In this document: positions 33,240 through 40,182 of the stretch, one piece after another
Layout: each line of letters opens with the position of its first letter
Position numbering within the stretch: the stretch's first letter is position 1
Sequence record: NC_047820.1
DNA: 50,800 nucleotides
Origin: Escherichia phage vB_EcoS_ESCO41
Reading direction: 5' to 3' (one strand)
Made by a program: the position numbers and the translations under genes
Notes under the pieces: generated by a model
Databases searched by the model: none
What the model saw: only the letters and a program-made list of their open reading frames with translations
What the model was told of the DNA's origin: nothing

Positions 33240-33683
33240 ATGCCACACGTAATCACTGGCCAGATCCGTAAATCACCATTCACTAAAGAAGGAAGCAACA
33301 ACAACGGACGTTGGAAAATGTATGCCGTCGAACTTTCTGAGCGCATGAAGATTCGAAATCAGAATGGCGAGGATGAGACGGTTTATAGCAACTACCGCGC
33401 TACATTCTTCGCAAAAGAAAACGTTATGCAGTGGTATGATGAAGCGTTCCAGGAGGGAAAGGTTGTTTCAATTTCTGCCGACACTCTTCATTTATCGTCT
33501 CGACAGGGTAATGATGGAACCGTTTACGTCACCGCTGAAATGATCCGGCCTCAGCTGCAATTCAGCCAGCGCGAACAAGCGCAGAAGCAGAGTCAAGGAC
33601 AACAACAGCATCAGCAGAATCAGAGACATCAGCAGCAGCAGCCACAACAACAAAAACAATTCGAAGACGATATACCGTTCTAA
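33240..33683 (+). CDS. ssb: single-stranded DNA-binding protein
   Basis: 147 aa; Gln/Gly-rich linker and canonical acidic tail ..QQKQFEDDIPF. Confidence 0.8.
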   Translation: MPHVITGQIRKSPFTKEGSNNNGRWKMYAVELSERMKIRNQNGEDETVYSNYRATFFAKENVMQWYDEAFQEGKVVSISADTLHLSSRQGNDGTVYVTAEMIRPQLQFSQREQAQKQSQGQQQHQQNQRHQQQQPQQQKQFEDDIPF

Positions 33684-33717: not shown

Positions 33718-36123
33718 TTAAATCAATCCATAAATAACATTGTGTAACGTAAGGGAGCCAATGGATGGTCCTACGTTAAAGTTTATCTCGGCTCTATATG
33801 CACCCTGAGGAACTGTTGATATAAGAGCGTAAAAAGAGAAGCTACCACCTTGCGGTATGTAGTAACCTACAGATTCCTCAACGGCATTACCAGAAATATC
33901 TAAAAATCTAATACTTGCTAATGCTGTTGTTGTGCTCATGGCCCAAAAGCCGAACTGGAAGTATCTACCCGGTTCGCAATCATAAGCATTAGTGGTAAAG
34001 TTAGCTGATGAGTTTAAGTCCGGTACATTCAAAAGGAATGACCTATCAAACTGAGCAGCTACACCTGTAGGCGCCTGCGAGACACTAGAGACAGCAACCG
34101 ATCCAGAAGAAGTTTGCGACAGTGACCAGTTGGAAGTATTCTGAAACTGGCCGCTGCCATTGCTTAGGCTGTTAATGTAAGGGCTAACAATTGATCCCTT
34201 GCTCCAATCACCAACAGGGAATCCAGCTCTCGGAAAGCACCCTCTCGCGATAACCTTTTTACTAGACCCGCCGACAACTTGCCTTGCTGGGAAACCAGAA
34301 GCAATTGTGGTACTTCCGTATAGGGGAAGCGAACAATTATTCAAGATTACAACGCCATCATCATTACTTACGATTGGAACAGACGTAAAACCATCTGGAA
34401 CAAGAATGGTGGTGTCTTTTATGCTTAATCTCGAACTTCCTGTGACCAGGAATGATACGAAGTTCTGACCTGGCTGATACTCTATATTTCCATTTGAGAA
34501 AACTACCGTCGCGTTATCGGACAGATTTACTGTGGGGTCAAAATAGCCACTCTTTTTACCTGCCGGTAATGAGCATGAATCAAAAATAAACTGACCATTC
34601 TCAAAGGTGATTGGTCCTCCGTTATCTACAATCCAGCAGTGATTAAACTTCATAACTTCACCAGAGTTAGCTCTCGACCTAAAAGTTATTGTCTCATTAA
34701 AACTCCTGCTTATTGCGCATTTATCAAAAAGAATCCTATATGAGTTGTCTAAGAACTCAATTCCACCAGTTGATATGATTCCGCAGTTCTCGATTCTTAA
34801 TTCGCCAGTCTCACCAGATGTTGCTCCACCTATACAGAACTTGCGGGCTCCAAGGCCAATAAATGAAACTCCAGATATCAATGATGTTGATGATATCGAG
34901 TCTCTATCAACATAATCAGTATTTGAGTTGAATATGTTGATGAAATATTCACCAACAGCACCGGGGGACTCTTTAATATTGCACTTGTTCTCGCCTATCA
35001 ATGAACCTTTTGATACGTCTATGTTTATCTGTGATTGCACAAGGCCATCTACAGGCACAACGCAGTCAAGGCCAGCCATGTTTACTGAGTTTATTGGCGC
35101 AGCTATATCACCATCACCAGTGTAACCAGCATCATATACTGTTGCTCTTCTACCGTTAAGTTTACGCCTCCATGTGACGCCGTCTCCTGCAAAAACAGTT
35201 ACATTATTAACCTGAAGTGATGCATCTGACGCGATAAGAGTACCGCCGCCTAGGTTGAATCCAGCCACATAAGACTCAAGCTCAATCGTAGTAATACCAA
35301 TCTCACCTGACAAACTAGATAACTCTGAAACTGATTTAACCTTACCGATTGAGCTTAAACCATCGTAATCAAACAAGTTTGAGTCATAAACCTTAACCCA
35401 TGAATCTACACCAACTCCACCCGTTGAATCTGGCGTAGAGCCTGCTGGAATCGTCTTTGGGAATGACCCAGTCCAGACATAAGACTTAACATCACTTCCA
35501 TTGATGTATAAAACCTGCTGATTTGTAGACTCTACCGTTCCTCCATCTGAGAAGTTTAAAGTTAATGTTCCAGACACAGAGTTTGCCGCTGCCTCTGCTC
35601 TATCGGCGGAAGATGATGCATTGGTGGCGTTAATTTGTGATGATGATGCATCACTTGAAACCTGTTCTGCAATCGTAACAATATCACCGTACTTCGTGTT
35701 TACCTGCTCTGCAATCGTAACAACATCACCGTGCTGCGTGTTTACCTGCGTTACCTTTGATTCAAAATCAGCATAGTCAAAATTGTTAAATGCATCAATA
35801 GCATCTGCAACTTCTGTTTCACGAGACTGATAGTAACGAAGTGTTTCTGCAACATCCTGAGCTAAGCCCTGAACGGTAATCCCATCGTGAGCAAGAATCG
35901 CGTAACCAGTTCCGGCAGGAACAGTTTCAGAATTAGGGTTATAAACATTAATATGCGTATCGCTGATAATTTCTGAGATAGTGTAAATCTGTACTGGTTC
36001 AGTTTTGAAAACAATGGTAGCACCAACGCGAATCAGTGTAAGCGGTGCTTTCCATGTCGTCCCGACGCCAGTAACCTCGCCATTTGCGGCTAGCGATGCT
36101 GTTCCTAAGTCATAAATTGCCAT
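33718..36123 (-). CDS. tail fibre / tailspike protein; start ATG 36123
   Basis: 801 aa; N-terminus MAIYDLGTASLAANGEVTGVGTTW is a phage-fibre-type anchor (recalled from memory); Gly/Asn/Ser-rich body; RBS AGGAG. Confidence 0.65.
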   Translation of the reverse strand: MAIYDLGTASLAANGEVTGVGTTWKAPLTLIRVGATIVFKTEPVQIYTISEIISDTHINVYNPNSETVPAGTGYAILAHDGITVQGLAQDVAETLRYYQSRETEVADAIDAFNNFDYADFESKVTQVNTQHGDVVTIAEQVNTKYGDIVTIAEQVSSDASSSQINATNASSSADRAEAAANSVSGTLTLNFSDGGTVESTNQQVLYINGSDVKSYVWTGSFPKTIPAGSTPDSTGGVGVDSWVKVYDSNLFDYDGLSSIGKVKSVSELSSLSGEIGITTIELESYVAGFNLGGGTLIASDASLQVNNVTVFAGDGVTWRRKLNGRRATVYDAGYTGDGDIAAPINSVNMAGLDCVVPVDGLVQSQINIDVSKGSLIGENKCNIKESPGAVGEYFINIFNSNTDYVDRDSISSTSLISGVSFIGLGARKFCIGGATSGETGELRIENCGIISTGGIEFLDNSYRILFDKCAISRSFNETITFRSRANSGEVMKFNHCWIVDNGGPITFENGQFIFDSCSLPAGKKSGYFDPTVNLSDNATVVFSNGNIEYQPGQNFVSFLVTGSSRLSIKDTTILVPDGFTSVPIVSNDDGVVILNNCSLPLYGSTTIASGFPARQVVGGSSKKVIARGCFPRAGFPVGDWSKGSIVSPYINSLSNGSGQFQNTSNWSLSQTSSGSVAVSSVSQAPTGVAAQFDRSFLLNVPDLNSSANFTTNAYDCEPGRYFQFGFWAMSTTTALASIRFLDISGNAVEESVGYYIPQGGSFSFYALISTVPQGAYRAEINFNVGPSIGSLTLHNVIYGLI
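35661..35744 (-). repeat. intragenic 42-bp tandem repeat (2 copies, 4 mismatches) in the tail-fibre gene, encoding VNTQHGDVVTIAEQ / VNTKYGDIVTIAEQ
   Basis: Direct comparison of 35661-35702 with 35703-35744. Confidence 0.7.
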
Positions 36124-38060: not shown

Positions 38061-39242
38061 ATGTTGCCTATCGAGAAGTTGGTTGCGAACTTCGATAAAG
38101 AAAGAATCAAACAAATTCAGAGAGATTATCAGTTTGGCGAGATAACCCCTTACGAATTCCAGTGCGTTACATTTGATGCAATTGGAAAGGCTATTGGGAA
38201 GTATGAGGCCCCATTTATAGCAGACCTTTCCGTTTCTGCGGGTAAGACAATTATTCTTGCCATGATTGGTAAGCGCATGGAGCAATTAGGGTTGCCTTAT
38301 ATGGTTCTTTCTCGCCAGTCAGAGATAATCAGCCAGAACTCAGAAGAGCTCCGTAATTTCGGTATCCGTAACAGCGTATATTGCGCTGGCCTTAACGTTA
38401 AATCAGTTTACTACCCAACCATAGTGGCTAGTGAGGGTACGGCAGCCAATGGCTTATTTAAGGGGCTTGGTGACTATGTTCCTGCGGTTATCGCTATAGA
38501 TGAATGTCACATGCTTGATACCATAGATATTGTGGAAGCCGAAGAGAATGAAGAAACATTTGAGCAAATGAGCACAAAGAAAGGCGAGATGGTTTTTAAG
38601 GATGGCGTTAATACTGGATTGCTTGGTACTGGTCGTGCGCAGTACACGCTAATAATCACTGAGATGAAGCGTCGCTGCCGTGAAAAATACGGGCGGGAGC
38701 TTCGTATATTCGGCCTTACTGGTAGCCCTTATCGAAACAATGACCATATCGTCGTTAGCAATCCAAACATCCGTGGGTTCTGGCGAAAAACTGTGATTCA
38801 GGTTCCAACAAATTACCTTGTTGATTTGGGATTCGTGGTTCCTACTGTTTATGGCGAGGTTGGCGATTTAGGTTATGACCTTAGCGAGTTTGAGCCTGAC
38901 GGAAGCGATGGTGTGAAAGATTTCAGCAAGAAAGAAATGGATGCGATGGCTGCAAAGATTCACGACAATCAGTCAATGACTCAAAAAATAATGGGGTTTG
39001 TTGTAAAAATACTAGAGACTCGTAACGCCGCGCTGGTTACATGCGCTGGCAAGTTGCACTGCAGTGAAGCGGCTGCCGCACTGCCTGATGGATACCCTTA
39101 CGCAATCATTACTGATTCTACTGGCGAGAAAAAACGACGTGAGATTCTATCTGATTGCCAGACAGGTAAGTACAAAATAATATTCCAAATTGGGTGTCTA
39201 ACTACGGGCGTTTCGGTCCCGCCCTTACGCAATCATTACTGA
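38061..39242 (+). CDS. SF2 helicase, N-terminal part (reading frame broken by 127-bp tandem duplication)
   Basis: Walker A SVSAGKTI, DEAD-box-like AIDECHM; ORF stops 21 nt into the second repeat copy. Confidence 0.65.
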   Translation: MLPIEKLVANFDKERIKQIQRDYQFGEITPYEFQCVTFDAIGKAIGKYEAPFIADLSVSAGKTIILAMIGKRMEQLGLPYMVLSRQSEIISQNSEELRNFGIRNSVYCAGLNVKSVYYPTIVASEGTAANGLFKGLGDYVPAVIAIDECHMLDTIDIVEAEENEETFEQMSTKKGEMVFKDGVNTGLLGTGRAQYTLIITEMKRRCREKYGRELRIFGLTGSPYRNNDHIVVSNPNIRGFWRKTVIQVPTNYLVDLGFVVPTVYGEVGDLGYDLSEFEPDGSDGVKDFSKKEMDAMAAKIHDNQSMTQKIMGFVVKILETRNAALVTCAGKLHCSEAAAALPDGYPYAIITDSTGEKKRREILSDCQTGKYKIIFQIGCLTTGVSVPPLRNHY

Positions 39243-39348
39243 TTCTACTGGCGAGAAAAAACGACGTGAGATTCTATCTGATTGCCAGACAGGTAAGTAC
39301 AAAATAATATTCCAAATTGGGTGTCTAACTACGGGCGTTTCGGTCCCG
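39095..39348 (+). repeat. perfect tandem duplication, 2 x 127 bp (39095-39221 and 39222-39348), inside the helicase gene
   Basis: Base-by-base comparison; 127 is not a multiple of 3; deleting one copy restores a single ORF 38061..40182. Confidence 0.85.
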
Positions 39349-39369
39349 CCGTGGGACACAAGCGTTGTA

Positions 39370-40182
39370 TTGAGAAAGATTGGTAGCTTAACTCTCATGA
39401 TTCAGCTTCTTGGGCGAGGCATGCGAATTCTAAAGAAAAAGCATATAGAAATGGGGATGAAAAAAGATGATCACCTTGTTCTAGACTTCGCCGGCGCACT
39501 TGACGATATGGCCGAACTTTACTTTGACCCAATCATTGAAGAAATTCAGGCTGAGAAGTTCAAGTCCTCAAGGAAAGGTGGTGATGAGGTCCGGCAGTGC
39601 CCGCAGTGTGGATATGAGAACTCACCATTTGCTCGACGCTGTAGCAACAAGATTGATGGAAAGCGCTGTGAGCACTTTTTCAGCTTTACGGTTTGTGAAG
39701 ATATTACTGACCCACAAACAAAGTCCGTCATCAAGAAAGGTTGCGGTACTCGCAACGACATAGCAGCAAAGGTTTGTCGTGAATGCGGAGAAATGCTTAA
39801 AGACCCTAATGCTAATCTAACCGGTAAGATGTATCGTCGTGGTGATTACCTCCGAGTTTATGATTTTCAAGTTGGTTTAAGTAAGAACCAGACTGGAATA
39901 GTTGTTAAATACAACATCATGGCGCATAACGGAGAGCGGTTTAATGCTTGGGAGTTCTTTAATCCAGAATCAGACCATCGAGTTTGCAGCGTGCTTTGGA
40001 AAAATTTCTGCCTATCCCATATTGAGAATCGCACAGAAGCAGCACGAATTGCTAAACTTCGCAGCGCAAAAATGATTATGATGAACGTAGATAAATTCCG
40101 TGCTCCTGTGCAGGTAACTCACAGAAAGAATGGCAAAGGAAAGGACATAATAGCTTTTAAGAATTTTGGAGAATTATTATGA
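39370..40182 (+). CDS. SF2 helicase, C-terminal part (motif VI plus Cys-rich zinc-finger-like region); possibly a pseudogene fragment
   Basis: QLLGRGMR helicase motif VI; CPQCG..RRCSNK..CEHF and CGTRND..CRECG; frame continuous with upstream ORF if one repeat copy is removed. Confidence 0.55.
   Translation: MRKIGSLTLMIQLLGRGMRILKKKHIEMGMKKDDHLVLDFAGALDDMAELYFDPIIEEIQAEKFKSSRKGGDEVRQCPQCGYENSPFARRCSNKIDGKRCEHFFSFTVCEDITDPQTKSVIKKGCGTRNDIAAKVCRECGEMLKDPNANLTGKMYRRGDYLRVYDFQVGLSKNQTGIVVKYNIMAHNGERFNAWEFFNPESDHRVCSVLWKNFCLSHIENRTEAARIAKLRSAKMIMMNVDKFRAPVQVTHRKNGKGKDIIAFKNFGELL

Follow-up and report, generated by a model that had tools for sequence, protein, structure and literature searches.

A two-heptad in-frame duplication in the predicted helical neck of a chimeric Drexlerviridae tailspike

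A stretch of 50,800 nucleotides (nt) from Escherichia phage vB_EcoS_ESCO41 (sequence record NC_047820.1), a T1-like phage of the family Drexlerviridae, is referred to here as the window. At 33718..36123 on its minus strand lies an open reading frame (ORF) of 801 amino acids (aa) plus stop, which its translation and homology identify as a lateral tailspike gene and which contains a 42-bp tandem repeat. The ORF starts at the ATG at 36123 (MAIYD...), a start that is shared with the annotated homologues. The gene occupies the conserved slot of the lateral tail fibre, with the primase gene on one side and the SSB/Erf genes on the other, and the same arrangement was found in all 19 relatives that we compared. 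Its nearest relative in GenBank is the gene of the 'tail fibers protein' of vB_EcoM-p111 (genus Nouzillyvirus), with 98.7% nucleotide identity over the whole gene.

The repeat itself is unambiguous. Tandem Repeats Finder reported one array at 35660..35749, with a period of 42, 2.1 copies, 91% matches, no indels and a score of 152. The two adjacent minus-strand units are in frame with the gene: unit 1 (35704..35745; GTAAAC...GAGCAG, that is VNTQHGDVVTIAEQ) covers aa 127-140, and unit 2, the extra copy (35662..35703; VNTKYGDIVTIAEQ), covers aa 141-154; each comprises two heptads. The units are the same at 38 of the 42 positions. Three of the four differences are non-synonymous and fall on the first codon position (Q>K, H>Y, V>I), the remaining one being synonymous (GAG>GAA). 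A first-pass annotation had described two adjacent 42-bp units with four mismatches, encoding a repeated 14-residue module in the N-proximal region of the 801-residue protein, and this description was confirmed by Tandem Repeats Finder and by a shuffle test. The boundaries it gave (35661-35744) designate the right repeat and lie one base off the codon phase, which is immaterial for a tandem repeat. The origin of the repeat by chance is excluded: the probability of at least 38 matches in 42 is ~7e-19 per position, which corresponds to ~2e-11 expected occurrences over the window for periods of 10-500, and the best period-42 match in 100 shuffled controls was 25/42 versus 39/42 observed at the best offset. 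The possibility of an assembly artefact could be ruled out as well, because the copies are imperfect and occur in three genomes, including two independently sequenced GenBank phages.

The architecture of the encoded protein reveals where the repeat resides. The protein begins with a beta-rich N-terminal virion-anchor domain that is shared throughout the Drexlerviridae (aa 1-83; 35875..36123, minus strand, as are all features of the gene), defined by predicted strands at aa 3-77 and by invariant alignment columns. A first helix (aa 84-113; 35785..35874) contains the invariant AQDVAETLRYYQS motif and the columns 86-100 that do not vary among 35 sequences. It is followed by a long neck helix of ten heptads (aa 117-184; 35572..35775), recognized from the predicted structure and from the pattern of core residues, and this helix contains the repeat as well as, directly after unit 2, a single VSSDASS heptad (aa 155-161; 35641..35661). 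Further downstream come the Tail_spike_N domain (aa 188-245; 35389..35562; Pfam PF18668, E 7.9e-16) and a beta-helix plus C-terminal receptor-binding/enzymatic body that resembles TSP4 of phage CBA120 (aa 250-801; 33721..35376; delimited by alignment to 5W6H). A search of the PDB sequences with phmmer related aa 1-183 to the Depo32/DpK2 depolymerases (7VYV, 7VZ3, 7LZJ; E ~1e-35), and aa 160-801 aligned to 5W6H, which is CBA120 TSP4, as far as the last residue (E 1.5e-247). A Foldseek comparison matched the Tail_spike_N region to the N-domains of CBA120 TSP1/TSP3/TSP4 and of G7C gp63.1. Two other PDB entries whose matches overlap the repeat region, 9LNA and 9VVR, were rejected, as the convincing part of the alignment was confined to Tail_spike_N. 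The N-terminal module is widespread, with 1519 library proteins matching it at E<=1e-3; the homologous anchor in Depo32 has been labelled 'N-terminal anchor domain' (PMC10581125), and in these Drexlerviridae proteins conservation is limited to the far N-terminus (PMC8594841).

Judged by these alignments, the gene product is a chimera in which a Drexlerviridae anchor and neck are joined to a receptor-binding body of the CBA120-TSP4 type: it has the homologous anchor including the AQDVAETLRYYQS motif, a helical segment after the anchor, and Tail_spike_N followed by the TSP4-like body. The label of a tail-fibre gene, under which the repeat was initially reported, is therefore wrong, as the homology to 5W6H identifies the product as an enzymatic tailspike with a beta-helix body and not as a fibre. 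Amino-acid identity amounts to 63.5% with CBA120 orf213 and to 65-68% with the tailspikes of phages isolated on Escherichia coli O78 hosts. Considering that CBA120 TSP4 cleaves the O78 O-antigen (PMC8825819) and that the nearest homologues come from phages with O78 hosts, we predict an O78-type tailspike; the target glycan is probably O78 or a related one, and an O78 specificity is plausible at 63-68% identity. An O157 specificity, which was initially derived from the TSP4-like body, proved to be wrong for the same reason, TSP4 being specific for O78 (PMC8825819). As an observation in its own right, the body predicts an O78 host, a type associated with avian-pathogenic E. coli, for this siphovirus, and it shows that modules have moved between phage families.

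A structure prediction for the repeat region was run with AlphaFold2 (AF2) on the monomer with a 35-sequence alignment, giving a mean predicted local distance difference test score (pLDDT) of 80.7. The model consists of a beta-rich anchor (aa 3-77), two helices (aa 84-113 and aa 117-184) and the beta-structured Tail_spike_N domain. The second helix is single and unbroken, with a pLDDT of 93-94 across aa 121-170, and the repeat (aa 127-154) occupies its middle part. The repeat is thus confidently predicted to belong to a continuous helix (pLDDT ~93) and not to be unstructured. The heptad register is kept between F120 and V183, over ten heptads whose core residues are small or hydrophobic, both at position a (V124, H131, A138, Y145, A152, A159, A166, A173 and A180) and at position d (F120, V127, V134, V141, I148, V155, S162, A169, A176 and V183), and the hydrophobic periodicity has its maxima at 3.5 and 2.3 residues. 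Each 14-residue unit equals exactly two heptads. Of the three substitutions that distinguish the units, H>Y at a and V>I at d fall on the core and are conservative. The solved structures of homologous proteins (5W6H, 7VYV and 7LZJ) contain three chains each, and the segment of Depo32 that corresponds to the neck helix has been termed a 'helical-bundle domain' by its authors (PMC10581125). Since these homologues are trimeric, the neck helix is probably a parallel trimeric coiled coil. An alpha-helix rises ~1.5 Å per residue. The 14 added residues would thus lengthen the helix by ~2.1 nm, the whole neck helix measuring roughly 10 nm. The expectation that the repeat changes the length of the protein was in this sense borne out, as it lengthens a structured element by two heptads (~2 nm), with a net gain of one heptad (~1 nm) compared to the nearest single-copy relatives.

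Modules of ~14-15 residues that contain a glycine are typical of the beta-structured shafts of viral fibres. The module could accordingly be regarded as a shaft repeat of the kind found in adenovirus or T4 fibres instead of a piece of coiled coil, and indeed each unit has both the appropriate length and a Gly-Asp pair. We consider this extremely improbable. The predicted structure is helical throughout aa 117-184 with a pLDDT of ~93 and provides no beta-fold for the repeat, both the a/d pattern and a periodicity of 3.5 residues are evident, and the neck lengths found in the family (see below) change in steps of seven and not of 14 or 15 residues.

The distribution of the extra unit is narrow. 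Comparing the 19 related phage genes together with that of the window (20 phage genes), we found two copies only in the window, in vB_EcoM-p111 and in P817. One copy each is present in P818, TR3, Rtp, IME253, XT34, RobRod40, BEK2, SU57, AugustePiccard, Rogue1, Opt-79, JK06, TH27, A110b, JulesPiccard, ETEP102 and DTL. When these 20 genes were pooled with 191 proteins from two protein searches, 92 of the resulting 211 family proteins contained one unit-like motif, three contained two and none contained three; the nearest metagenomic proteins have one copy. An allele with at least three copies was found neither in the GenBank phages nor in IMG/VR or the JGI metagenomes. Searching the IMG/VR and JGI metagenome contigs for the junction between the units, with exact DNA patterns as well as codon-degenerate ones, retrieved only the phage's own contig (IMGVR_UViG_2974610512_000001). 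Likewise, word-indexed protein searches and exhaustive searches of representatives yielded no two-unit protein beyond the known GenBank phages.

These data bear directly on the suggestion that came with the first-pass annotation, namely that expansion and contraction of the repeat could contribute to host-range variation. Copy number does vary among the related phages, but only between one and two, and two copies are limited to three phages. In its strongest form the suggestion describes a contingency locus of the variable-number tandem repeat (VNTR) type, in which frequent changes in copy number would alter the length or flexibility of the fibre and hence the host range. The head-to-tail copies (2.1 copies, 91% matches) are 88-95% identical, so that slippage is possible in principle; moreover, neck length varies across the family and tandem heptad repeats are common there. 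Nevertheless, such a locus seems very unlikely to us. A polymorphism in copy number among close relatives was not observed: for this unit there are just two states, one or two copies, and all three carriers have exactly two copies with identical unit 2 DNA, which argues for stable inheritance of the two-copy state. The junction pattern, also in its codon-degenerate form, appears nowhere else in the IMG/VR and JGI metagenome contigs. There is thus no evidence for ongoing expansion or contraction.

The link to host range fares no better. Receptor specificity in this family maps to the C-terminal domains (PMC8594841, PMC8825819). The bodies of the window and p111 proteins are TSP4-like; that of P817 shows no match to the TSP4 beta-helix and ends in a C-terminal domain of the T5-pb1/endosialidase type. 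Because P817 has the duplication together with an unrelated receptor-binding body, the duplication is, as far as the compared genes indicate, not coupled to any particular specificity, and a contribution to host-range variation is not supported.

A comparison of the units at the DNA level provides a clue to their origin. The window, p111 and P817 share the same unit 2 sequence. Unit 1 differs by 1-3 nt among the three carriers, with the unit 1 of the window 1-2 nt away from that of p111 and P817. Within a gene, the two units differ least in P817 (2 nt), followed by the window (4 nt) and p111 (5 nt), and the nearest single-copy orthologue differs by at least 7 nt from unit 1 and by at least 11 nt from unit 2. 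By these distances, the single unit of the relatives has its orthologue in unit 1. Since fewer differences separate the units from each other (2-5 nt) than from their orthologues (at least 7 nt), the duplication appears to be recent and to have taken place in situ, in the common ancestor of the N-terminal module of the carriers.

The surrounding sequence suggests how this may have happened. In the DNA alignment, the necks of all relatives are made up of successive 21-nt quasi-repeats, at the boundaries of which CAG|GT (Gln-Val, heptad positions c/d) recurs. CAGGTA and CAGGTT stand on either side of the duplicated unit. Slippage at these CAGGT microhomologies is the most likely mechanism. Just downstream of the repeat, single-copy relatives such as TR3 and P818 have two heptads of the AxQVSxD type, in place of which the carrier lineage has a single one (VSSDASS). 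The 21 nt that remain resemble a fusion of the opening 15 nt of the first TR3 heptad with the closing 6 nt of the second. The gain of two heptads is thus offset by the loss of one, and the net change relative to the closest single-copy relatives amounts to seven residues, i.e. one heptad or ~1 nm (471 nt versus 450 nt).

The same comparison allows for another origin. The duplication could be the scar of an exchange of receptor-binding modules, in which an unequal homologous crossover, two heptads off register, took place between the necks of two co-infecting phages; we regard this as unlikely, and the same holds for its corollary that unit 1 was derived from one parent and unit 2 onward from the other. 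Homology between relatives indeed breaks within the neck. ETEP102 and the window gene share 98% identity over nt 1-300 and 76% thereafter, and P817 shares 93-99% identity with the window gene up to the end of the neck and 81% in Tail_spike_N, after which the two are unrelated. Such breaks at several points of the neck are in line with the published conservation of only the far N-terminus (PMC8594841). In addition, single-copy alleles are themselves polymorphic for H/Y and V/I, the residues at which the units differ in their core, and it is unit 1 that varies among the three carriers and unit 2 that is invariant. On the other hand, both units share synonymous codons (ACG ATT GCA GA) that are found in no single-copy relative, the distances of 2-5 nt between the units as opposed to at least 7 nt to the orthologues fit an intramolecular duplication better, and a candidate second parent with a K-Y-I unit was not found.

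We therefore favour, and consider likely, a recent in-frame duplication of two heptads in a trimeric lateral tailspike, which preserved the register of its alpha-helical neck, probably arose by slippage and is nearly neutral. The extra unit would have been created by a misalignment of 42 nt between two CAG|GT microhomologies in the neck DNA, either through replication slippage or through unequal crossing-over between co-infecting relatives, and 21 nt would have been lost just downstream in the same lineage. As both events are multiples of 21 nt, the hydrophobic a/d seam would remain unbroken, and the receptor-binding body would keep its azimuth with respect to the anchor. The neck would then act as a rigid, register-constrained spacer that joins a conserved anchor to an exchangeable receptor-binding body, and the sole structural effect would be that the neck exceeds that of the closest relatives by one heptad (~1 nm). 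Most likely, the duplication is neutral or adjusts the reach slightly, and does not determine specificity.

Several points weigh against this interpretation. The AF2 model is that of a monomer, and the parallel trimeric packing is inferred from the solved homologues. A Foldseek comparison of the N-terminal AF2 model with the PDB matched Tail_spike_N only and found no solved structure for the anchor or the neck. The equivalent segment of Depo32 is invisible in the published cryo-electron microscopy map (PMC10581125), so that a structural template for the neck is lacking. Furthermore, each unit contains a Gly-Asp pair (G132/D133 and G146/D147, at heptad positions b/c), which is unusual for a canonical coiled coil, and the a positions are mostly Ala, so that the bundle may be thin or locally irregular. 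Finally, the proportion of non-synonymous differences between the units (three of four) neither supports nor excludes selection, the numbers being too small.

A view of the entire family puts the event in perspective. Neck length was taken as the number of residues that separate the invariant YYQS motif and the helix-end motif, and could be measured in 98 proteins. In the Tail_spike_N class it was 72 residues in one protein, 79 in 25 and 86 in 13, and all 39 were in one phase modulo 7. In the class with a 'YAASLD' downstream module it was 82 residues in 52 proteins, 89 in one, 96 in one, 103 in two and 194 in three, and again all 59 were in one phase. Within each class, then, every one of the 98 measurable proteins obeys the rule that insertions and deletions in a coiled coil comprise whole heptads, including a group that exceeds the norm by 16 heptads. 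As changes by whole heptads keep both the seam and the orientation of the body, such a constraint would explain why only multiples of seven are found. The nine-heptad state was reached in several ways, among which are the duplication described here, a doubled LSGALIS in IME253, an extra heptad in the Opt-79-like proteins and other cases. In IME253, a comparison with Rtp revealed an independent 21-nt tandem duplication (LSGALIS LSGALIS) at nt ~540-585 of the gene, at the C-terminal end of the neck helix. The best tandem repeats in the necks of the family have a period of 7, 14, 21, 28, 35 or 42 aa in 98 of 105 cases, a count in which period 7 is inflated by the low-complexity, Ala/Ser-rich composition of the neck.

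One could go a step further and regard the neck as a 'recombination ladder', in which 21-nt periodic DNA with CAG|GT permits modules to be swapped and necks to be resized only in register. We regard this idea as unlikely. Were it true, the duplications would be the visible by-products of a system selected for structurally safe module exchange, and the heptad-quantised length of the neck might be tuned jointly with the receptor-binding body or with the thickness of the surface glycan.

The closest known systems are the capsule depolymerases of the Webervirus genus (Drexlerviridae), Depo32 of phage GH-K3 (7VYV/7VZ3) and 7LZJ, which are homologous to the window protein over aa 1-183. Like the proposed arrangement here, they are trimers in which an anchor, a helical segment, a short neck or connection domain and a beta-helix body follow each other, and their helical segment is also made of heptad-type repeats (AKTSETN-like). 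The segment differs, however, in sequence and length, with an alignment gap of 11 residues at unit 2, and the receptor-binding body is unrelated, being directed at the K2 capsule there and TSP4-like here. CBA120 TSP4 (orf213, 5W6H), from a myovirus of the Ackermannviridae, shows the reverse relation: it aligns end-to-end with aa 160-801 and shares Tail_spike_N, whereas its N-terminus consists of a 335-residue region for baseplate anchoring and TSP assembly (PMC8825819) in place of the Drexlerviridae anchor and repeat-bearing neck.

More distant parallels can be drawn on functional grounds, and to our knowledge none of the stalks concerned has a sequence relationship to the tailspike neck. T4 fibritin, the shaft of T7 gp17, the stalks of trimeric autotransporter adhesins and the adenovirus fibre shafts are rods that space a binding head from an anchor. 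Like the tailspike neck, such stalks change in length by whole structural repeats with the register kept. In adenovirus and in some trimeric autotransporter adhesins the differences in length are large and have measured functional effects, whereas here the difference is one heptad. In Streptococcus thermophilus phages, collagen-like repeats flank the variable host-specificity region, and there too short periodic coding repeats stand beside an exchangeable receptor-binding module as potential sites of in-frame recombination. Those repeats are of the GXY and not of the heptad type and belong to other phages, and we have no evidence that the neck repeat mediates exchange.

Elsewhere in the window, three other tandem repeats were observed. 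A perfect (100%) 127-bp tandem duplication at 39095..39350 lies in a DNA helicase gene, where it causes a frameshift that splits the gene into the ORFs 38061..39242 and 39370..40182. Relatives carry a single copy of the segment (848 query bases map onto 721), and removal of one copy restores a helicase ORF of 664 aa. The maximum k-mer of the SPAdes assembler is 127. Because of this coincidence, the duplication is very probably an assembly artefact, an end overlap of a circular assembly that was retained. The helicase (38061-40182) gave no match to the 2103-nt helicase of p111 in a local blastn/megablast comparison and is closest, at 87% identity, to the 1995-nt type of vB_EcoS_FP. Compared to p111 the genome is therefore a mosaic, with a tailspike gene that is 98.7% identical and a helicase that is nearest to that of vB_EcoS_FP. 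An imperfect 27-nt tandem repeat at 33574-33642 (2.6 copies, 76% match) encodes the Gln-rich C-terminal tail (QQQHQQNQRHQQQQPQQQKQ) of an SSB-like ORF (33240..33683), and a weak 24-nt repeat is found at 1973-2022 (2.1 copies, 80% match, score 65). The analysis thus tells apart a genuine, imperfect 42-bp duplication and a perfect 127-bp one, very probably an assembly artefact, within the same window.

Taken by itself, the duplication carries little weight. It is an event of a known type, a further case of a coiled-coil stalk that is resized by whole heptads, and the quantisation in sevens across the family is an expected property of such a stalk. What changes is the annotation of the gene, as the 'tail fibre' becomes a chimeric tailspike in which a TSP4-like and probably O78-directed body is mounted on a T1-like phage. 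Since the phase modulo 7 is constant within each class for all family members that could be measured (98 of 98), the neck can be seen as a register-constrained spacer, and this provides a design rule for chimeric receptor-binding proteins of the Drexlerviridae: the neck should be joined or resized in multiples of seven residues only.

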